From a virus (lineage: Duplodnaviria; Caudoviricetes), in the IMG/VR virus record IMGVR_UViG_3300007760_000615, positions 1 through 56,081 of that record: DNA of 56,081 bases, one strand, 5' to 3'. Shown here piece after piece: positions 6,963-56,040 of the stretch. The notes beneath the pieces were generated by a model. The model was not told the origin of the DNA. It saw only the letters and a program-made list of their open reading frames with translations, and did not search any database. The position numbers and the translations under genes are program-made. How positions within the stretch are numbered: the stretch's first letter is position 1; every line of letters begins with the position of its first letter.

Positions 6963-9356
6963 TTATATTGTGCAGGCATCACAGTCATCTTCTTTATTAG
7001 CACTGGCAGTGACTTCTACACTAGTGTTAACTTTAGCATGACCGTTAACGATTTGTCTATCTGATAATTGTAATTCTACTTCTTCACCTTCGTCAGTTTC
7101 AACTGTATCGCCATATCCTGCTGGTTGTACATCTTCTTCTTCACCTTTAAAGTCATAAGTGTTTTGATAGTAAGAAGTTTTCCAACCATACTTGTATGTG
7201 TTAAGCATATCTGTTGCCATTACTGATAAAGGTACTTCATTATTTTCATAGTGTTTAGGATTATAAGACCAGTTACCACTAATTGCTTGATCAAAATATT
7301 TTTGCATTATTGCTACAATATTAATATATCCTTCGTTGTTTGGCATATCCCATAGTAAAGTATAATCATTTTTAAGTTTAGGATAACCTGGAACGATTTG
7401 TTTTAATGGTCCTTTTTTAGATTTTTTAATTGATAGTAATGCTCTAGGTGGTTCAATTCCGTTTGTTTCGTTACTAACTACGGAAGAACTTTCACTTGGC
7501 ATTTGAGAAGATAAAGTGGAATTTCTTAATCCATATTTTGCAATATCTTTTCTTAAACTTTCCCATGCCATTCTTTGTTTGTGTGGTATAATTTTGTCTA
7601 CTTCTTTTTTATAGTGATCAAGTGGTAAGTCACCATCTGCATATTTTGTTTTATCGAATGCAGAACATTTACCTTTTTCTTCTGCAAGGTCACATGATGC
7701 TCTTAATAGATAATATTGAAATGCTTCGGAAAGTCTATCAACTAATTCCCAAGCTCTTTCATCAGAATATTTTACACCATTTTTTGCTAGATAGTGTGCC
7801 AAACCTATATACCCAATACCTAAAGAACGTCTTGCTTTAGTGCTTATTTCTGCCGCCTTAACTGGATATCTTTGATAGTCGATAATTTGATCTAATGCTC
7901 TTACTGATATATCGCATAAGTTTTCTAATTCACTTACATCATTTAGTGTACCAACATTAACAGCGGAAAGAATACAAAGTGCAATTTCTCCCTTGTCATC
8001 GTCAATGTGTTGTATAGGTGTTGTGGGTAATGTAATTTCTTGACATAAGTTTGACATAGATACTTTGTCTTTAAAAGAAGAATGAGTATTACAGTGATCA
8101 ATATTCATAATATAGATCCGTCCTGTCTCCGCTCTTTCTTTTAATAAATCAAAAAATAAATCTTGTGCTTTAACAACTTTTTTTGGAATACTTTTGTCAT
8201 CTTCGTATTTTTCATATAAGTCATCAAAGTCTTCTGTACCAAATGCATCATATAATCCTGGTGCTACTTGTGGTGATATAAGAGTAATGTTTTCGTTATT
8301 AATAAATCTTTCATAAAACAATTTAGAAAGTTGTATAGAATAATCCATACGTCTTACTCTGTTATCTTCTGTACCTTTATTATTTTTTAAAACCAGTATA
8401 TCTTCTATTTCAGGATGCCATATTGGGAAGTGGACAGTTGCGTTACCTCCACGTACTCCGTTCTGTGTGCAACATCTTACAGTGCTTTCGAATTTTTTTA
8501 GAAACGGAATCACTCCTGTGTGTTGAACTTCTCCACCTCTAATTTTAGAATTGATTCCTCTTATACGCCCTGCATTAATTCCTATCCCTGCTCTTCTAGC
8601 AACATATAAACCAATTGCCATATCACCTGAGAAGATAGAAGGTAACGTGTCGTCTATGTCAACTAAGACACAACTTGCAAATTGTCTTACTGGTGTTCTT
8701 ACTCCAGCCATAACTGGAGTTGGAATGTTAATTTTGTGTAATGAGATTGCATCGTAATATTTTTTAATGTAGGATAGTCTTGTTTTTTCAGGATAGTTAG
8801 CGAATAGCGTGGCCGCTATCATCATATACATATCTTGTGGAGTTTCGTATAATTCTCCTGTACTTCTATCTTGTACTAGATATTTGTCACAGACTTGTCT
8901 TAACCCTGCATAGGTAAATTTTAAATCTCTTTCTCTTCGTATCCAAGAGTTTAATTTTTTAATTTCTGTTTTAGAATATTTTTCTACAATGTCTTTATCA
9001 TACACACCATTTCTAACATTTCTTAAAATTAATTTTAATAAAGGAGTATATTCATATTGTCCGTGTGCTTCTTTTCTTACATCATATAAAAGTAATCTTG
9101 CCGCGGCGTATTGGTAATTTGGAGTTTCGAGAGTTATTAAATCATTTGCTGAACGTACTAAAACATTTTGAATATCTTTTGTAGTCATGCCATCATAAAA
9201 TTGTATGTTGGCATTCATTTCTATCTGTGATGCCGAGACCCCAGGTAAATTTTCACAGGCCTCTTCAACAACGAAATGAATTTTATTAATGTCTAGAGAT
9301 TCTTTTCTGCCATCACGTTTGGTGATTGAAATGTTCATTGTACTGGCGGTTGGCAT
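6963..9356 (-). CDS. nrdA: ribonucleotide reductase class Ia alpha subunit with ATP cone
   Basis: TKRDG ATP cone, PTPVMAG, QFASCVL, SNLCQEI, LCIL, MPSESSS, C-terminal CDAC; start 9356 follows AAAGGA (ORF open to 9425). Confidence 0.98.
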   Translation of the reverse strand: MPTASTMNISITKRDGRKESLDINKIHFVVEEACENLPGVSASQIEMNANIQFYDGMTTKDIQNVLVRSANDLITLETPNYQYAAARLLLYDVRKEAHGQYEYTPLLKLILRNVRNGVYDKDIVEKYSKTEIKKLNSWIRRERDLKFTYAGLRQVCDKYLVQDRSTGELYETPQDMYMMIAATLFANYPEKTRLSYIKKYYDAISLHKINIPTPVMAGVRTPVRQFASCVLVDIDDTLPSIFSGDMAIGLYVARRAGIGINAGRIRGINSKIRGGEVQHTGVIPFLKKFESTVRCCTQNGVRGGNATVHFPIWHPEIEDILVLKNNKGTEDNRVRRMDYSIQLSKLFYERFINNENITLISPQVAPGLYDAFGTEDFDDLYEKYEDDKSIPKKVVKAQDLFFDLLKERAETGRIYIMNIDHCNTHSSFKDKVSMSNLCQEITLPTTPIQHIDDDKGEIALCILSAVNVGTLNDVSELENLCDISVRALDQIIDYQRYPVKAAEISTKARRSLGIGYIGLAHYLAKNGVKYSDERAWELVDRLSEAFQYYLLRASCDLAEEKGKCSAFDKTKYADGDLPLDHYKKEVDKIIPHKQRMAWESLRKDIAKYGLRNSTLSSQMPSESSSVVSNETNGIEPPRALLSIKKSKKGPLKQIVPGYPKLKNDYTLLWDMPNNEGYINIVAIMQKYFDQAISGNWSYNPKHYENNEVPLSVMATDMLNTYKYGWKTSYYQNTYDFKGEEEDVQPAGYGDTVETDEGEEVELQLSDRQIVNGHAKVNTSVEVTASANKEDDCDACTI

Positions 9357-9569: not shown

Positions 9570-11153
9570 TTATACCATTATTGTAGTTTGGTATTCGAGT
9601 GTAGCATTCGTGCCAGTTGATGTTGTAGTATATTTTAAAGCAACTGTTTCGCTACCAGAAGTAGAGTCTTTGTCATCTAATACTGCTGAAAGAGTTACTC
9701 CAACATCTGAACCGCTTTCAGTAAACGTATCGTCATATTGTACACCGTTTGTTGATGCACTAACAATAAGTTCTCCAGTTCTGTCTAATGTTCCTCTTAC
9801 TATTTTATATTTTATAATTAACGATTTTCCTGCCAATGCTGGAAATTCATTTATTGTGGTGGCCGATTGATTGTCGAGTAAAGTTGCTTGTTTAATTGCT
9901 TTTGTTGATATTCCAATTCCTTGTAATTCTGGAGCGGCATTTAATTCTGAACTGCCGTCTGCTCTTCTTAAATCTGTTCTTTCAAAAAAGTCTAATGCTG
10001 AACTGCATTCATCTCTGTCATATTGTATTATAGGCACTTCACGAATTGATCCAACACCTTCAAAATTATTTGCTACATTTAGTCCATACCAATTACCTTG
10101 TGAAATAATATTTCTTATGTCTCCATTAGCACCTGAAACCCAAATAGCTTGTTGACTAATATTGCTCCAACTATTACCATTAAATTGAACATCTCTAGGG
10201 CCTACTGTTAAACCATTTGCAGAACCATCAGTGTCTTCTCCAATTCTAGCACCGTAGTATCCAATTGTAAAATCACAATTATGAAATCTTACACTTGTAA
10301 CATCATAATCTAAATCAACTAGTCTAGCAAATTTTGAAAATTGACATTGATCAAATACAACGTTTGAGGAACTGTAAGTATTTGTACTTCTAACTGTGAT
10401 ACCTTTTGAGTTAGGCGCATCTGTTCCTCCTGCTACATATGTTCCTACAAATTTACAATTTCGTAGATACACGTGAGTTGCACAATCAATTGACAATCCA
10501 CCGTATGCTTCACCATTTTTAAAACAAATTCCTTCTATTTGAATTTGTGTTGGTGTAGTTGTAGTAATTGATCCAAATGCATTTCCGTTATTATCTTCTG
10601 TTACTGCGACAGGTGCATTTCCACCTGACTGAGCAAATACTGTTTTGCCTGGACCTTCACCTCTTAAATGTGCATAAGGTGGAATCTTAATAGATCCTGA
10701 TACGTTATAAATTCCTGCTGGAAAGAATAAAACTCTATGTGCTCTTACATCTGCTTGATCTGTGTCTGAATATAATTCTTCAAGTGCTCTTTGTATTGCT
10801 GTTAAGTCTGCTGTTGAGCCATCTCCTACTGCTCCAAAAGCCTTAATTGAAACGTAGTCATCTAATGTTGCTTGTAATGTTCTACTAACATTACCACTAG
10901 CGCCTGTTAATATTGGAGTTGAAGCACCGAGATAGCCTTGATAAACATGAGTAAGTGCTGTTGAAAATGCAGAAGATCCTGAAGTAATAATTTCTGTATT
11001 ACCTACTGCAGGAGCACCGTCTGCCACGGTACCGTTTCCTATGTATAATTTTTGATCATCAATAGACCAGCCTATTTCTCCAGCCGCTAATTGCGGTAGA
11101 TCAGTGGCTTTTCCACGTCTGTGTTGTATTCTCGAAATTTGGACTATCGGCAT
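9570..11153 (-). CDS. tail fibre/spike-type virion protein with right-handed beta-helix (pectate lyase 3-like)
   Basis: N-terminal RIQHRRG..LPQLAAGEIGW..KLYIGNG anchor; VSIKAFGAVGDG..DLTAIQRAL..LFFPAGIY. Confidence 0.8.
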   Translation of the reverse strand: MPIVQISRIQHRRGKATDLPQLAAGEIGWSIDDQKLYIGNGTVADGAPAVGNTEIITSGSSAFSTALTHVYQGYLGASTPILTGASGNVSRTLQATLDDYVSIKAFGAVGDGSTADLTAIQRALEELYSDTDQADVRAHRVLFFPAGIYNVSGSIKIPPYAHLRGEGPGKTVFAQSGGNAPVAVTEDNNGNAFGSITTTTPTQIQIEGICFKNGEAYGGLSIDCATHVYLRNCKFVGTYVAGGTDAPNSKGITVRSTNTYSSSNVVFDQCQFSKFARLVDLDYDVTSVRFHNCDFTIGYYGARIGEDTDGSANGLTVGPRDVQFNGNSWSNISQQAIWVSGANGDIRNIISQGNWYGLNVANNFEGVGSIREVPIIQYDRDECSSALDFFERTDLRRADGSSELNAAPELQGIGISTKAIKQATLLDNQSATTINEFPALAGKSLIIKYKIVRGTLDRTGELIVSASTNGVQYDDTFTESGSDVGVTLSAVLDDKDSTSGSETVALKYTTTSTGTNATLEYQTTIMV

Positions 11154-11167
11154 ATTACACTTATTTA

Positions 11168-11872
11168 TTAAAGGATTGACTTGTAGTATTGTTCTAATTT
11201 AGTGTACCATTGCCCTGCCCAATAGTCGTAATTGTCTATTTCAAATGTTTGGAATTTGTTGTCTTGTGTGCAAATAAAAACTCTGCCTGAACTTATATGT
11301 GTGTCATACATTTTGTTATGTGCTTCTGCATATGCAACTAATTGTAAAAAGTAATCTTCAGTCCATTCTTTCTTTTTAAGTTTTCGTGCTTGTTTAAAAT
11401 CCATAATAGCAGGTTCGTTTTTATATACACCTACAAGATCAGTTGTGCCTGCATATAGTTCTGGATAAAGTAATGAAACTTCTGATCCCCATACTTCACT
11501 AACATCGTTTAATCCATTATCAATAATGACATTGGCCATCGCGTGTGCTTTTTGATGTATAAGATTAGAGCCAGGTTTTCTTTCTTTTCCTTTTACGTGT
11601 TTTTCTAAAGATGAGTGCATAACGGTTCCAATGTTTGCAGATTCTTGTGTAATTTGTCGTGCTTTTTGTTCTCCTATTCTTTTTCGCCATGCGTTTAACT
11701 GTGTCATATCTTTTGTTGCAGATAAAACTGTTGTTACAGAAGGTACTTGTCTACCGTCGGGAGTTTCATAATGTCTTTTATGATTTTTGGTAACTTTAGC
11801 TAGTTCACCGTATGGATATTTTTGTATGTAAGGAATACCTTTACTTTTTAATACATCTTCGGATATTTTCAT
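11168..11872 (-). CDS. PD-(D/E)XK phage exonuclease
   Basis: PSVTTVLS, GTVMH, YAGTTDLVG..IMDFK, YFLQLVAYA. Confidence 0.85.
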   Translation of the reverse strand: MKISEDVLKSKGIPYIQKYPYGELAKVTKNHKRHYETPDGRQVPSVTTVLSATKDMTQLNAWRKRIGEQKARQITQESANIGTVMHSSLEKHVKGKERKPGSNLIHQKAHAMANVIIDNGLNDVSEVWGSEVSLLYPELYAGTTDLVGVYKNEPAIMDFKQARKLKKKEWTEDYFLQLVAYAEAHNKMYDTHISSGRVFICTQDNKFQTFEIDNYDYWAGQWYTKLEQYYKSIL

Positions 11873-26612: not shown

Positions 26613-27671
26613 TTATTTCAATAGGTGTGGTTTGAATTCAGCTTTCCAACCAAATATGTTGTTAAACCACCAAACAAGATCCTTAAGTTTCTTTTCTGTA
26701 TAAAGGGATCGTTGATACTTAACAATCTCATCTGCTTCTTCACCAATTGCCCAGTTGTAATTTCCGCCTGATGCTTTGGCAATTATCGCTCTTGATTCTG
26801 GATCTGCTAACATTTTCTTTAATGCCGCAACAAGTTTATCTCTGTGAGGAGCATCTTTGTTTACCCATAAACCTTTTTGTAGAGAGTCGTTTTGGAATTG
26901 TACTAATTTGTATGCATCATACAATTCACCACTTGGCTTTTCACCCCAAGTTTTTTCAAACACAGTATCAAAGTCATATCCTTTTGCGTTAGGGTTTGTT
27001 ACAATTTGTTTCTTTTCAGGATCATAAACTCCTTGTGTAAACCAAATTTCACCATGCTCGAACTTACTAATTTTTTTAGTCCATGCAGTTGGATTACCTC
27101 TGAATACATTAAACTCGCCTCTGGCAAACATTAATGTTCCTTGTTTGTCATTTACTCCTTTAACGTATGTCATATCTTCATCAACACATTTTTTGTATGA
27201 TTCAATTTTGCCGTCAAGGTTTCCACAGTACATCAGTACCATTCCTGTAACGTCACCAGCCGCGTGATCGTTTCCGAATACCATACCACCATCTCTTGGA
27301 TTCCAATCTTTTCTTTTACCTACAAATATGTCAAGTAATTGTACTCCAATTGCGTCCCAATTCATGTAGTCGTATTCGACACCAGTTTTAACTAGTGTGT
27401 TTACAGAAGTCGTACCACCTGTAACTGTGATTGCTTTTTCTTTAAACCTATTATCTTTGTTCCATTTGTTCATACCAATTAAGTGTCTTGCACCTGGGAT
27501 ATGTACTGAAACAATAGGTTCATCGACGTGCTTCTTTAGTTCCTTGATTACTACCTGTGCCCATTGATCTAACCCTGACCCTGGTTTAGTAGGAAGGTAG
27601 ATAGTATAATCAGCCATAGCTGATACAGATGTAAACAAAAATAGAAATGTCGCTAATATTAATTTTTTCAT
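26613..27671 (-). CDS. tctC: divergent TctC/Bug-family periplasmic substrate-binding protein
   Basis: Signal peptide; PTKPGSGLD..IPGA matches the PxxxGGxxD..PGA Bug pattern; adjacent to tctA. Confidence 0.7.
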   Translation of the reverse strand: MKKLILATFLFLFTSVSAMADYTIYLPTKPGSGLDQWAQVVIKELKKHVDEPIVSVHIPGARHLIGMNKWNKDNRFKEKAITVTGGTTSVNTLVKTGVEYDYMNWDAIGVQLLDIFVGKRKDWNPRDGGMVFGNDHAAGDVTGMVLMYCGNLDGKIESYKKCVDEDMTYVKGVNDKQGTLMFARGEFNVFRGNPTAWTKKISKFEHGEIWFTQGVYDPEKKQIVTNPNAKGYDFDTVFEKTWGEKPSGELYDAYKLVQFQNDSLQKGLWVNKDAPHRDKLVAALKKMLADPESRAIIAKASGGNYNWAIGEEADEIVKYQRSLYTEKKLKDLVWWFNNIFGWKAEFKPHLLK

Positions 27672-37425: not shown

Positions 37426-37455
37426 GGTTGACGGTATTAAGACCTATGTTATTAT
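37426..37455 (+). promoter_or_regulatory. early promoter, GGTTGAC class
   Basis: TTGACG, 16 bp, TATTAT with extended TG. Confidence 0.8.
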
Positions 37456-37460
37456 AAAGC

Positions 37461-37745
37461 ATGGATTTGAAAGAGAAAATTTTAGAAAAAACATCAGCAG
37501 ACCTAATAGAAGAGCTGTATGAAGATTTCATAGACCAATACCAAAAAGGAAAATTCGTAGAAGGTATTTGTGAATGGAATGGTGACGATGCTTTAATGGG
37601 ACCAGAATCAGTTGCTCATAAATTTAAAAAGAAAGCAATTGAATTAGGATATGGTTCTAATATGAAAGGCATTTTATATTGGGCAGAAGAATTAGAACAA
37701 TGGGTAGATGGCCATTTAGGACATTTAGAAAGTAAATTTAGATAA
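37461..37745 (+). CDS. hypothetical early protein, probably leaderless
   Basis: ATG 5 nt after the -10 box. Confidence 0.7.
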   Translation: MDLKEKILEKTSADLIEELYEDFIDQYQKGKFVEGICEWNGDDALMGPESVAHKFKKKAIELGYGSNMKGILYWAEELEQWVDGHLGHLESKFR

Positions 37746-47799: not shown

Positions 47800-48108
47800 A
47801 TGAAAAAAAATATAAAAAGACAAATACTCATTTTCACAGAAGCCCTAGGTTATGTAGAAAATGCTCACATAGACCACGGTACGGTTTATGCTAATTTCTC
47901 ATCTCAAAAAGATGCCAAATCTTATAAACAAGATTTACAAAATTTCATGAACGACTTTTATGTTGGTGATACCAAAGTTAAAGAATGGAAACTTTGGAAA
48001 GCTAATGACAAGGATGTTTATGCTTTCGACATTATGGAAGACACTTATATTCCACACGATGTTGATGTAGCAATTAATCTAGAAAACGAAAGTAGACTAG
48101 GAAAATAA
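47800..48108 (+). CDS. hypothetical early protein
   Basis: AAGGAG RBS after promoter. Confidence 0.7.
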   Translation: MKKNIKRQILIFTEALGYVENAHIDHGTVYANFSSQKDAKSYKQDLQNFMNDFYVGDTKVKEWKLWKANDKDVYAFDIMEDTYIPHDVDVAINLENESRLGK

Positions 48109-49024: not shown

Positions 49025-49054
49025 GGTTGACGATATAGAAAGATATGCTAAAAT
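49025..49054 (+). promoter_or_regulatory. early promoter, GGTTGAC class
   Basis: TTGACG, 16 bp, TAAAAT with extended TG. Confidence 0.8.
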
Positions 49055-49075
49055 TAATAATAATGAAAGGTTGAT

Positions 49076-49543
49076 ATGAAAGAAGAAATAAAAATAATAG
49101 ACGGAACATACAAAAAAGATAATCCACATCAGGATATCGGTAAGCAGAAATTCAGAGTTAAGAAATTCTACAATGTAGAAATTGATTATGAAGTGGTTGC
49201 CAATTCAAAAGAAGAAGCGGAAGATGCCGTACAAGAACACGGTGGAATAGACAAGATTGAATGTCTAGATGGCTACTATGGTGATGAACCAGTTGAAATG
49301 ACATACAACGATCATAATTGGGATCAACAAGCAGAATCAGATTATGAAAAATATGGTAGAGAACCTAGAGTTCAAAAGATAGAAGAATGTGTACCATATG
49401 AAGATTGGGATAGTGACACAGATGTTCATTTTGAAAATTATGAAGACCCAGAGTGGACTACTGATTCTTATAGATGGAAAAAAGAAGAATTAGAAACATC
49501 TGATGAGAAAGTTAAAACGAAAGAAAGTGAGATACCATTTTAA
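49076..49543 (+). CDS. acidic hypothetical protein (EVVANSKEEA motif)
   Basis: First gene after promoter; ends in EIPF. Confidence 0.7.
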   Translation: MKEEIKIIDGTYKKDNPHQDIGKQKFRVKKFYNVEIDYEVVANSKEEAEDAVQEHGGIDKIECLDGYYGDEPVEMTYNDHNWDQQAESDYEKYGREPRVQKIEECVPYEDWDSDTDVHFENYEDPEWTTDSYRWKKEELETSDEKVKTKESEIPF

Positions 49544-51488: not shown

Positions 51489-51758
51489 ATGTTCAAATAT
51501 CTTTCTAACACGATGAAGATGACATTGATAGCTGGAATTCTATTTTTCGGATTGGCAGTTAGCTCTAAATCAGAACCGTTATCTATCGACCAGATCAAAA
51601 ATGTACCTGGTAAGGTAGTAGGTTTTATTGAGAGAGAAGTTGCTAAAACAAAGGAATATCAGACAGCGAACAAAAACGAAATGAAGTATCAGATTAAAGA
51701 TACGAAAGAAGATCTTAAAGATCTATTCGCTTCTATTAAAAGTCTTTTCATTAAGTAA
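51489..51758 (+). CDS. exported hypothetical protein
   Basis: Signal peptide; related to 46402..46713. Confidence 0.65.
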   Translation: MFKYLSNTMKMTLIAGILFFGLAVSSKSEPLSIDQIKNVPGKVVGFIEREVAKTKEYQTANKNEMKYQIKDTKEDLKDLFASIKSLFIK

Positions 51759-51765
51759 AAACAGA

Positions 51766-51836
51766 ATTCTTCGGTAAACGAAGAATATAGACAGGCGGAG
51801 TACCTTTCATTTCATTTCAACTACTTCGCCTGTTTT
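51766..51836 (+). terminator. double hairpin ending the early array; candidate 3'-derived small RNA
   Basis: ATTCTTCG/CGAAGAAT stem, then 12-bp ACAGGCGGAGTA/TACTTCGCCTGT stem (G-U pair on + strand) with a 19-nt loop and short U-tail. Confidence 0.7.
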
Positions 51837-51859
51837 CATGAACAGGAAAGGAATTAAAA

Positions 51860-52156
51860 TTATTCAGGTATGAGAGTTAGAGCTTCTTGCATCAATGTTT
51901 CGCACTCTTCATTTCTGCCAGTTAGTCTTAAAGATACCGCTTCATCTCTTTTTGTCAAAGCAGATGCCTTATCTTCATCACTAGCAGATGTGATTGCTAA
52001 TAGTCTGTCATATTCAGTTAATTCATCTTCACATTTACCATCATCGGCTAATACCGCTTTTGATTGGGCATCAGATCCTTTGGTAAAATCAACTTCGACA
52101 GCCCAAGCAGGCGATAAGAACATAAGAAATATTAATGTCAATAAAAGTTGTTTCAT
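51860..52156 (-). CDS. small secreted helical protein with a Cys pair
   Basis: Signal peptide ending AWA; TAAATA at 52162-52167. Confidence 0.7.
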   Translation of the reverse strand: MKQLLLTLIFLMFLSPAWAVEVDFTKGSDAQSKAVLADDGKCEDELTEYDRLLAITSASDEDKASALTKRDEAVSLRLTGRNEECETLMQEALTLIPE

Positions 52157-52216
52157 ACTACTATTTACCAAATATAGTCATATTACCAGAATACCATACC
52201 CGTTTTTTCCGTATTC

Positions 52217-52246
52217 GGTTGACTTTTTTAGGAAAGGTATTATAAT
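52217..52246 (+). promoter_or_regulatory. early promoter, GGTTGAC class
   Basis: TTGACT, 16 bp, TATAAT. Confidence 0.8.
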
Positions 52247-52272
52247 AAAAGAACAATGAGGGAGGAAAATAA

Positions 52273-53355
52273 TTGAAAAAATACATTAAAATCGAGCAAG
52301 GTTCATATCGTGGTAAAGATATGTCTGGTCGTATATTTCCTATCCTTAAAGATTATCAAAAATTTGGCGGCGGAAAAGAAGGTGGCTTTGTCACGGTAGA
52401 TACTACTGAATTGGCAGGTTTCACTGAGAAGGAAAAGGTACGAATTAATGTTCCAGGGATCAGCAGTTTAACGATAGTTCAAGAAGGACAATATATCACT
52501 CACAGAGACGAACTAAAACAAGATGCCAAAACAGATTCAAATAAAGAAACAGATGAAGAAGCAATAGAAAGAATAGGAAATAGATTTGCCATTCTAGATG
52601 AGATGGCTGAAGCAGTTGCGACAAGTAAAGTTAGAGCAATGATAGTATCCGGCCCTCCAGGGATAGGTAAATCATATGGAGTTGAGAAAGCACTTGAAAA
52701 ACAAAATATGTTTCAAGACATAGCAGGCGATAAAAGAAAATTTGAAATGGTTAAAGGTGCGATGAGTGCCATAGGTTTATATAAAAAGCTCTACGAATTT
52801 AAAGACAAAGGTTGTGTTTGTTGTTTTGATGACTGTGACGCAATTCTTTATGACGACTTGGCTTTGAACTTGCTTAAGGCGGCCTTAGATACAACGCCTA
52901 AGAGATCTTTGCACTGGAACACAGAATCTAGAACATTACAGAACGAAGGTATGCCTAATTCATTTGAATTCTCAGGTGGAGTTATTTTTATTACCAATAT
53001 CAAGTTTGATAATGTTAAATCTAAAAAATTACAAGATCACCTAGCGGCATTACAAAGTAGATGTCACTATTTAGACCTAACGATTGATAGTATGAGAGAT
53101 CGTATGTTAAGAATTAGACAAATATGTGGTATAGGTATGCTTAAGAAATATGCTATGCCAAAAGAAACAGAAGAAGAATTAATCCAATTCATTTATAATC
53201 ATAAACATAAATTAAGAGAGATATCATTGAGAATGGTATTAAAGATAGCAGACTTATGGAAGATGGCACCAGACAAGTATCAGCAGTTGGCAGAACAGAC
53301 TTGTATGAAGCCTGAACGAGAATTATACGACTTACGAACAGGAGCAAGATTATGA
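52273..53355 (+). CDS. AAA+/P-loop ATPase
   Basis: Walker A GPPGIGKS, Walker B CCFDDCD, VIFITN, ALQSR; TTG start after AGGGAGG. Confidence 0.85.
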   Translation: MKKYIKIEQGSYRGKDMSGRIFPILKDYQKFGGGKEGGFVTVDTTELAGFTEKEKVRINVPGISSLTIVQEGQYITHRDELKQDAKTDSNKETDEEAIERIGNRFAILDEMAEAVATSKVRAMIVSGPPGIGKSYGVEKALEKQNMFQDIAGDKRKFEMVKGAMSAIGLYKKLYEFKDKGCVCCFDDCDAILYDDLALNLLKAALDTTPKRSLHWNTESRTLQNEGMPNSFEFSGGVIFITNIKFDNVKSKKLQDHLAALQSRCHYLDLTIDSMRDRMLRIRQICGIGMLKKYAMPKETEEELIQFIYNHKHKLREISLRMVLKIADLWKMAPDKYQQLAEQTCMKPERELYDLRTGARL

Positions 53356-54684: not shown

Positions 54685-56040
54685 TTCTTACTGGACCTCC
54701 CTTCAGTAGAATAGCATAGGATCAGCAGTTAATTCAGTTGGTCCTATTGCCTTGATTATAATAGACATTGTAGACACCTCCCCTCTTACGGTAAGACAGA
54801 GCTCCTGCCCGAGTGACCCGAAGCAGATGCGCCGCGATTTTTTTCGTCGAGCGACCTTGGCCGGAGGCCCGGCGTACGATATTTTTTGACCAGGCTCTCC
54901 TTAGCCTAATCGTCTTATAAGTTCTATTGTTCTACACCTTTAGGCTATCGCCATTTAAGGTATCCCAAGCAGGCTAGCCCGCCTGCTGTCTCTTTGAGTT
55001 CGAACAATTAGTACGGTAGACTAGAGTAATGAGTAGATGCATCTACTCTTCTGTCACAATATGCAATTATGATGGAGATTAAATTAGGATGATGTATAGT
55101 CCTATAATGAAACAAGCTAGAACAATATACCTTATAATGGAACAGACTGGACAGAATAGATGTAGCTTGGCAAGGTGATTGCTAATGGCAGACGGTGCGG
55201 GGTTATCCGTATCCTTTATTTCCGGCTCCTTGTTATACTGAGCTCGTTCTCTCTCTGTTGGCATTGTGAGTATTTAATATCTAATCGTTATACGGTTTAA
55301 TAAGCGATCGCATTTTAGCATAGCCGGCCATCCTAAGGATTTTTATTTGGAAATAGTTTGCTTTGGTAAACTATATCTACTCGTATGAGTCGAACCACGC
55401 TGTCATGGCTCCTGACCATCGTTAGCGTATGAGTAGGCTATTGACAGGCGCTAGACTCGAAACATTATAGCCTTATCATACGGCGACGGTAGGAGATGGT
55501 AATGTTTGGTAAGCCATGGTAGGCCATTACTCGCTTCCTGAGCAACTCGACTTGGTGGATTAGGTTTGGTCTCACGCTGTGGTAGGTGATGGTAAGGATT
55601 GGTAATGCTCGTCTCCCCTAGGTAATCTTTTGAATGTCAATTGGCCTCCTCCGGAGGCCTGATTAATGCAGTTAATCAATATCATATCCGCCTAGTATGA
55701 ATAAGCCTAGCGACACACGTCAATGACAAGCGTATAGTCAAGGCAATAGCGTATTGATGACAGCAATTCATATAAGTGAGTTGCCATAGCGTATGTCCAA
55801 GGTGGGGTAGCGTATGGGTGGTCGGGTTAGTGTAGGATCTATAAGGCCCATATGGCACGGTGGAGAAGGTGGGGTGGCTCAAACTCAAAAGATTTTTTGG
55901 TGGGGTGGCCAGGCTTATAAAACTTTTTTACTTTTTTAATTTGGTAAAAGGCAACGGACCCATGGTGGAAGAAAGTCCTGGTGGCCTATAAAATACCCCC
56001 ATATTTAAAAAAATAGCAAAATTTTATAAAACTCTTGTGT
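54685..56040. other. largely non-coding, GC-elevated, repeat- and palindrome-rich region
   Basis: Only one credible ORF; TGGTA, AGCGTAT and GGTGGGGT repeats; several hairpins. Confidence 0.7.
55079..55264 (-). CDS. small membrane protein with CxxC
   Basis: TAAATA at 55271-55276; C-terminal TM helix. Confidence 0.55.
   Translation of the reverse strand: MPTERERAQYNKEPEIKDTDNPAPSAISNHLAKLHLFCPVCSIIRYIVLACFIIGLYIILI

Follow-up and report, generated by a model that had tools for sequence, protein, structure and literature searches.

The element described here is an RNA hairpin encoded in the window, the whole stretch of 56,081 nucleotides (nt) that was analysed, which is virus record IMGVR_UViG_3300007760_000615 of IMG/VR. 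The window is a single 56-kb virus record of ~33% G+C without a close cultured relative; a megablast search of it against phages gave no match, and near-identical phage records were not found. Its DNA ligase has relatives at 30-40% identity among large cultured phages, mostly SPO1-like Bacillus phages, and the cultured-phage relatives of its P-loop ATPase, also at 30-40% identity, occur in T4-like and jumbo phages. The source of the window is an uncultured marine T4-like phage. From ~36 kb to 54.7 kb, small + strand genes stand behind seven promoters of the form GGTTGAC-N16-(-10), and GGTTGAC occurs 11 times in the window against 3.7 expected; gene starts were taken from our own crude caller, and promoters from a regular expression that fires inside genes as well. 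The + strand run of small early cassettes is broken at 51758, where its last small gene ends, and the hairpin sits in that gene's 3' untranslated region (3' UTR):

51489..51758, + strand: last gene of the early run, encoding 89 amino acids (aa) with a hydrophobic N-terminus and no Pfam family
51789..51835, + strand: anti-leader hairpin, with a stem of 14 base pairs (bp) (51789-51802 / 51822-51835) and a 19-nt loop (51803-51821)
51803..51821, + strand: the loop, whose 3' part CATTTCAAC, together with the closing T, is the anti-leader core conserved clade-wide

The stem includes two G.T pairs, 51798.51826 and 51790.51834, and the loop is composed of TTTCA three times and then AC. For the 111-nt region the folding energy is -28.3 kcal/mol (z = -4.4), a value that not one of 200 shuffles equalled. 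Is the hairpin a terminator? An earlier note on this DNA, made from the sequence alone, had called it operon-terminal and had judged a 19-nt loop large for a plain terminator. The judgement on size holds, given that intrinsic terminators have short loops of about 3-8 nt and that a GC-rich 14-bp stem here carries a loop of 19 nt; a terminator scan with a loop limit of 8 did not list the hairpin on the + strand. The claim of position holds too, since the hairpin does stand at the end of the + strand early run, but as a general label 'terminator' is doubtful, because a T-rich tail (at least 5 T in the 8 nt past the stem) follows only 5 of 56 distinct hairpins of relatives. In the window, TTTTC overlaps the 3' arm and then runs past it, and T-runs do follow the hairpins of one clade, that with GGAGCGAA leaders. 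Rfam gave no match at the gathering score anywhere in the window, the best weak match at the site being ncr1175 with 23.6 bits against a gathering score of 60, and a tRNA/tmRNA scan found none at the site. A - strand leader or small reading frame in the loop was considered and rejected: the window has a 19-codon ATG frame there, and relatives show immediate stops or no ATG.

What sets the hairpin apart is the sequence of its loop. The complete 21-mer at 51802-51822 is the complement of leader segments that, in genes standing first after a GGTTGAC promoter, overlie the Shine-Dalgarno (SD) sequence, the spacer or the start codon. Five such segments had been named in the earlier note; all of them are exact, and each lies 15-35 nt behind a GGTTGAC-N16-(-10) promoter:

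38560..38617, + strand: early promoter and leader, with AGTTGAAATGA (38607-38617) over the start codon at 38614; 11-nt complement
40730..40787, + strand: early promoter and leader, with GAAATGAAA (40774-40782) after the SD GGAG and before the in-frame ATG at 40785; 9-nt complement
43727..43780, + strand: early promoter and leader, with AAATGAAAGGT (43764-43774) overlapping the SD-like AAAGGTGAT, ATG at 43778; 11-nt complement
47749..47805, + strand: early promoter and leader, with GAAATGAAATGAAA (47792-47805) over spacer and start codon (47800); 14-nt complement, duplex of -17.6 kcal/mol
49025..49078, + strand: promoter and leader of the cassette ending at the hairpin, with AATGAAAGGT (49062-49071) overlapping the SD, ATG at 49076; 10-nt complement

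Enrichment was measured as the longest exact complement of the 21-mer within start regions (-25 to +12). For the seven promoter-first genes, in order, this length is 6, 11, 9, 11, 14, 10 and 6 nt; a complement of at least 9 nt occurs in 5/7 promoter-first start regions and in 0/91 others, where the maximum is 8. None of 5000 mononucleotide shuffles of the loop matched five leaders. In the genome-wide controls, all of which used the same leader set, the early region's 17850 other + strand 21-mers included none that matched at least four leaders, and 4 of 35979 coding-strand 21-mers of the late region reached five, all at one locus near 27655. Predicted duplex energies agree: the mean is -11.8 kcal/mol for first-gene start regions and -6.0 kcal/mol for the others (Mann-Whitney p = 5e-4), a gap that 0/400 shuffled loops reproduced. 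The five leaders fall into two paralogous families and are therefore not five independent events. Thus the complementarity of the loop to promoter-first start regions, as the earlier note had claimed it, is confirmed as real and beyond chance, and the comparison with a shuffled background that it had proposed comes out in its favor.

Relatives were collected by way of the ATPase gene in the next transcription unit, which served as the anchor:

52217..53355, + strand: promoter, leader and conserved P-loop ATPase gene (52273-53355)

Homologues of this ATPase with 69-91% identity were found in IMG/VR and in marine metagenome contigs. All of the relative records are fragments, and many loci are near-duplicates, the distinct hairpin sequences numbering 56. 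The 191-aa and 89-aa neighbor genes were also tried as anchors and were abandoned, their relatives being so rearranged or so weak that the junction was not visible in them. Scanning IMG/VR with an exact-stem pattern gave nothing; a degenerate loop pattern gave at least 118 chance matches, and among those listed none stood in a comparable hairpin (the best flanking stem had 9 bp, in an unrelated context).

In the relatives, as in the window, the hairpin is preceded by homologous small genes and stands upstream of the ATPase gene, in most of them 70-97 nt before the ATPase start and just upstream of the ATPase promoter. The stems are very different; every loop contains TTCAACTC(C), once or twice. 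Our hairpin finder detected a + strand hairpin with a TCAACT loop in 74/87 loci with an ATPase of at least 75% identity, and several apparent misses have the hairpin farther upstream (L156, L200, L218, L153) or offer too little upstream sequence. Such loops contain 94 of 147 TCAACT occurrences on the + strand versus 2 of 310 on the - strand; at loci below 69% identity the occurrences in loops are 6/221 and 8/395.

The hairpins of the window's type, 24 in number (the window and 23 relatives), were aligned. In this alignment 97.6% of 288 cells are paired and 9/12 pairs have changed on both sides; none of 500 shuffles scored as high, and slid controls were 36-47% paired. Whether the loop would prove conserved had been a point on which the earlier note staked its proposal: TCAACT is invariant, while 10/12 stem pairs vary. 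The note had also taken a G-U pair to favor a + strand RNA, and the alignment strengthens this argument, since its 25 G.U cells would be mismatches on the opposite strand and so assign the structure to the + strand. The covariance model made with this alignment (R1) matches the window with 55.5 bits (E 5.7e-13), its only strong match there, and has + strand matches in 68/80 metagenome loci, counted over the matches listed; model matches in L258-L260 were discounted, the structure there being an ordinary short-loop terminator. In four loci (L205, L208, L211, L217) a second hairpin lies downstream of the ATPase operon; its loop is the same and its stem unrelated. The data show a + strand hairpin under selection, conserved across relatives, with a covarying stem and a fixed loop.

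The leaders of the relatives mirror this loop. Nearly all leaders that follow an early promoter contain the loop-core complement GGAGTTGAA, set at a constant spacing downstream of the -10 box; they read AAGGAGTTGAAA, and ATG follows within 0-5 nt. On the + strand, GAGTTGA is nearly confined to promoter-following leaders (6/7 in G006, 5/6 in G004 and G005). A complement of at least 8 nt to the loop of their own genome is present in 45 of 66 distinct early leaders versus 1 of 34 ATPase leaders, which use GGGAGG, and the complement length averages 4.6 nt with shuffled loops against 7.9 nt observed. The ATPase leader of the window likewise has an SD, GAGGGAGG, without loop complement.

Loop and leader also change together. 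Within the clade, L155 and L156 have leaders AGTTGATATGA (twice) and the loop CATATCAACT, where the main clade has the leader AGTTGAAATG and the loop CATTTCAACT. In phages with an ATPase of 51-61% identity, the early leaders contain GGAGCGAA and terminator hairpins have the loop ATTCGCTCC. All six + strand copies of GGAGCGA in L233 lie behind promoters, and immediately past its ATPase gene a 14-bp hairpin with a T-run holds the sole + strand TCGCTCC within its loop; for L297, nine of ten GGAGCGA copies on the + strand lie behind promoters, and the matching loops are in tandem hairpins with a T-run. Phages with GGAGAGAG leaders have the loops CTCTCTCC. When dominant leader types were tabulated against loop types, the diagonal of the matrix held 22/23 (16/16, 4/4 and 2/2 for three types) and the off-diagonal cells 1/69, with 3/92 in the - strand control. 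The GGAGGTGT clade (L227) was not counted as support, its matching hairpin being a weak 7-bp AT-rich stem that failed the stem filter. The co-changes alter 3-4 bases beyond the universal GGAG/CUCC core, which favors pairing with the phage's own leaders over a generic likeness to the SD. Covariation of loop and leaders in related phages, a check suggested by the earlier note, is thus found at two levels, within the clade (L155/L156) and between clades. The complementarity to SD and start regions exceeds chance and, as these co-changes show, is kept by compensatory change.

What would such a hairpin do? We lean towards reading it as an anti-leader, anti-SD RNA element that represses early translation by loop-leader pairing, and hold this to be moderately probable. 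The hairpin would belong to the + strand transcript, at the 3' end of the early transcription unit, and its single-stranded loop would display the complement of the leader (SD, spacer, start codon) by which the genes standing first after each strong early promoter are marked. The loop could base-pair with these leaders in trans, as a 3' fragment, or inside the same read-through mRNA. A strict scan found no terminator-like site between the early cassettes of the window, so that early transcripts may share the hairpin as their 3' end. Pairing would occlude the ribosome-binding site and reduce translation of the cassette-first early genes, perhaps with decay of the message. It is from the observed structure, strand, conservation, complementarity, promoter-first specificity and covariation that we infer pairing in cells, repression and its timing. 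The interpretation in the earlier note, by which a small RNA derived from the 3' UTR would shut off early translation as a delayed timer, is supported in part: in the antisense match to cassette-first starts, the conservation, the strand and the covariation.

Parts of the window are present in 20 public RNA runs, none of which holds half of its words; they are marine metatranscriptome assemblies. Among RNA-library contigs from the four runs compared, X1 (51725-52032) and X4 (51641-51843), from two studies, span the hairpin, and another, X2 (51642-51790), reaches only its foot; depths are 2-5, and assembled contigs give neither strand nor ends and may stem from DNA carry-over.

Several points weigh against repression by the loop. 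The RNA evidence at the site amounts to two to three low-depth contigs, possibly DNA carry-over, in which no RNA species, 3' end or processing site is seen. Two of the seven GGTTGAC leaders in the window (37426 and 52217) are without a match, as are 21/66 leaders in relatives, among them a different, conserved non-SD leader of several phages. The window leaders have drifted to GGAGAAATGAAA and AATGAAAGGTGATATG, which match other registers of the tandem TTTCA loop; the loop itself is identical to that of L017, though the L017 leaders are canonical, so that within this sub-clade there is no one-to-one tracking of loop and leader. Independent covariation events are few, about three leader types and one within-clade change, with many near-duplicate loci, and the matrix has a single row of the GGAGGTG type, for which the stem filter excluded the matching hairpin and the score was taken from a type-1 loop. 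A seed in a closed hairpin loop of only 9-11 nt is also sterically limited.

The rival explanations fit loop conservation, strand bias and covariation less well than anti-leader repression does. The first keeps the pairing and changes the outcome: the 3' loop would join the 5' leader of the same mRNA and protect it from nucleases or tune its use. The units with the hairpin at their 3' end do have the loop complement in their 5' leaders, and the single-gene unit of L233 (promoter, GGAGCGAA leader, ATPase) ends in a terminator with a complementary loop; where no terminator-like site separates the cassettes, as in the window, many transcripts may have a common 3' end, and pairing between 5' and 3' UTRs is known for icaR and hbs from the portions of the literature available. 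We consider this outcome unlikely. The paired stretch covers the SD and the start codon, which would normally block 30S binding, and the icaR pairing, which has the same geometry, represses according to the accessible part of its report (PMC3868564).

Could the hairpin be a plain terminator or 3' stabilizer, its leader likeness a by-product of A/T-rich low complexity or of promoter-cassette recombination? It ends a + strand gene run and has a GC-rich stem and, in the window, TTTTC; the T-runs of the GGAGCGAA-clade hairpins point the same way, and the promoter-SD cassettes of T4-type phages are described as recombination-prone repeats in the available sections of two papers (PMC2839356, PMC4122927). 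This reading is nevertheless improbable, for the loop is more conserved than the stem, T-rich tails are rare among the distinct hairpins, the loop motif switches along with the leader motif between clades, and neither shuffled loops nor genomic 21-mers reproduce the matches.

A third rival, which we hold to be very unlikely, is a double-stranded DNA site at which a phage or host protein recognizes GGAGTTGAA both downstream of early promoters and in the hairpin copy. The fixed distance of the motif behind the -10 box would suit such a protein, as would the Type I loops, in which two TGAAA-type units lie about 10 bp apart. The hairpin copy, however, is always antisense and in the unpaired loop of a covarying stem (the 94/147 versus 2/310 given above), the G.U pairs indicate RNA, the motif remains with the hairpin and not with the ATPase promoter when a gene is inserted between the two, and a DNA site would not require an SD core in every clade.

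Just as poorly placed is a decoy, in which the loop would mimic the 3' tail of 16S rRNA and titrate a protein or ribosomal factor (a nuclease, S1 or an initiation factor). The loop core UCAACUCC is one base off UCACCUCC, which we take to be the canonical anti-SD context of the ribosome. T4 shuts off early genes post-transcriptionally through RegB with S1, acting on GGAG and downstream bases in early ribosome-binding sites, as set out in the accessible part of that study (PMC1702504); the bases past CUCC, however, differ by clade and match each clade's leaders, a better fit to pairing than to universal rRNA mimicry. A search of the window and four relatives (fragments) for the RegB family PF10715 gave no match, but control genomes were equally without one.

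Two further features flank the hairpin:

51766..51786, - strand: small 8-bp hairpin with a T-run on the - strand, from terminator scan and fold
51860..52156, - strand: convergent small gene with a signal-peptide-like start

The small hairpin is likely the terminator of the convergent gene and lies outside the conserved element; relatives have no counterpart at the same place. In the window and some relatives, the gene at 51860..52156 separates the hairpin from the ATPase promoter, as an insertion in reverse orientation; other relatives lack it. The distance from hairpin to ATPase is about 350-450 nt with the inserted gene and 70-97 nt without it. This is an insertion/deletion polymorphism at a cassette boundary.

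The early promoters have other peculiarities. In that at 37426, which lacks a loop complement, only about 6 nt separate the -10 box from the ATG at 37461, and its cassette may therefore give a leaderless or nearly leaderless mRNA. Units of ATTACCA(A/G) lie inside the spacers of three early promoters (38570, 40740, 47759) and at 52182-52188; the window has 29 copies against 13.4 expected, a number reached by 0/100 shuffles, and just upstream of the ATPase promoter 2-6 direct repeats occur in all relatives (L015-L020, L145, L149, L153, L156). By their arrangement these repeats look like a protein-binding array. Some strong early-type promoters in relatives have, in place of the GGAGTTGAA leader, long conserved leaders with internal pairing potential, beginning with gaattatgtcttaggcgacggg or gaattatgtaggtggagaat, one for each of two types. 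The first type is found at L018:682, L164:3078, L168:3635, L207:866 and L210:6182, the second at L204:4828, L208:1467, L216:1604 and L225:365; these leaders are possibly small RNAs or structured leaders. Short hairpins of the form GGCAC-TAGATAT(A/T)GT-GCC, single or paired, stand just upstream of some early promoters in relatives (in oriented copies, G004 ~8890-8975, G006 ~10290-10370, G007 ~8900-8990 and ~11250-11330).

How does the phage hairpin compare with known systems? Closest in design are the cuckoo/CcsR (alpha-r14) small RNAs of Alphaproteobacteria, which, in the part of their description available, come from 3' UTRs and combine variable stems with a fixed, pyrimidine-rich loop motif of the anti-SD type (PMC4615179). 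Like them, the phage hairpin follows a small gene and sometimes occurs twice. The cuckoo/CcsR RNAs are cellular and, as far as that text goes, have 2-4 adjacent hairpins with the loop motif CCUCCUCCC, whereas the phage element is usually a single hairpin with the loop UUCAACUC(C) or a clade variant, matched to the phage's own early leaders. The window has one conserved hairpin, and its loop is without CCUCCUCCC.

In geometry the closest is the pairing between 5' and 3' UTRs of the icaR mRNA of Staphylococcus aureus, in which a 3' UTR motif is complementary to the SD, by the same partial source (PMC3868564). There, one cellular mRNA acts on itself, whereas here one 3' element matches several promoter-first leaders and covaries across a phage lineage. 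The icaR pairing is said to inhibit translation and to lead to RNase III cleavage. Among phages, the closest is the c4 antisense RNA of P1 and P7, which pairs, through exposed loops, with a ribosome-binding region of its own operon. That operon is the immunity/antirepressor operon of a temperate phage, whereas the element described here matches a set of early cassettes; there is no sequence or structure likeness to c4, and no Rfam match at the gathering score or at E up to 10.

The PeSL cassettes of T4-type phages contain repeated strong sigma70-like early promoters, a conserved SD/start and an adjacent stem-loop, in hyperplastic regions of T4-like genomes, according to the accessible text of two papers (PMC2839356, PMC4122927). 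The window resembles them in its promoters, all seven of which are on the + strand with related leaders, but differs in having, as its relatives do, only one or two hairpins per genome in place of a stem-loop for each promoter. No comparable hairpin, and none with an anti-leader loop, stands before the other early promoters of the window, G004, G006 and G007. The PeSL stem-loops are G-run/C-run terminators for which that text gives no loop role, whereas here it is the loop that is conserved; neither 'complementary' nor 'antisense' appears anywhere in the text of the 2010 PeSL paper. RegB and RegA of T4 are functional counterparts, but they are proteins, whereas the candidate effector here is an RNA loop, and no homology is claimed. 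A literature search, with supplementary files outside its scope, found no printed account of such a loop-leader system, and a motif search gave only unrelated primers.

A tentative extension of anti-leader repression is that an entire lineage of abundant, uncultured marine T4-like phages runs an RNA-only circuit of private SD and private anti-SD sequences, which we regard as conceivable and rather less than probable. The first gene behind every early promoter would have a clade-specific extended SD (GGAGUUGAA, GGAGCGAA or GGAGAGAG), and early units would end in a hairpin whose loop is its exact complement. The loop core is one base off the anti-SD context that we assumed for the ribosome, and the leader GGAGUUGA is one base off the canonical extended SD; since the loop differs from the ribosome at the base that matches the leader change, the hairpin would pair perfectly where the ribosome mismatches. 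The hairpin might thus out-compete the ribosome's anti-SD for those leaders only, and early translation would go off once enough 3' ends accumulate, or at the completion of each transcript. The motif pair would co-evolve as lock and key, a nucleic-acid counterpart of T4 RegB/RegA. At 54685-54715 the window has another small hairpin, with the loop GACCTCCCTT, the complement of which matches AGGGAGG in the ATPase leader (52259-52265); L221 has a GGTTGGA / cctccc / TCCAACC hairpin in a comparable place, 81 nt past its ATPase gene. The hairpin at 54685-54715 may be a second, generic anti-SD hairpin at the end of an operon.

Because loop and leader motifs differ between clades, nature supplies ready compensatory variants, and the idea is directly testable with reporters, the natural leader/loop pairs being GGAGUUGAA/UUCAACUCC and GGAGCGAA/UUCGCUCC. 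If confirmed, they would constitute orthogonal SD/anti-SD pairs of natural origin. If the proposal is true, it would give a function to the large-loop 'terminators' overlooked by gene callers and terminator finders. To our knowledge, early-gene shut-off by virulent phages is known in detail for a few laboratory phages only, and there it rests on proteins. The element suggests a simple RNA solution to early shut-off, widespread in ocean myoviruses without a cultured host.
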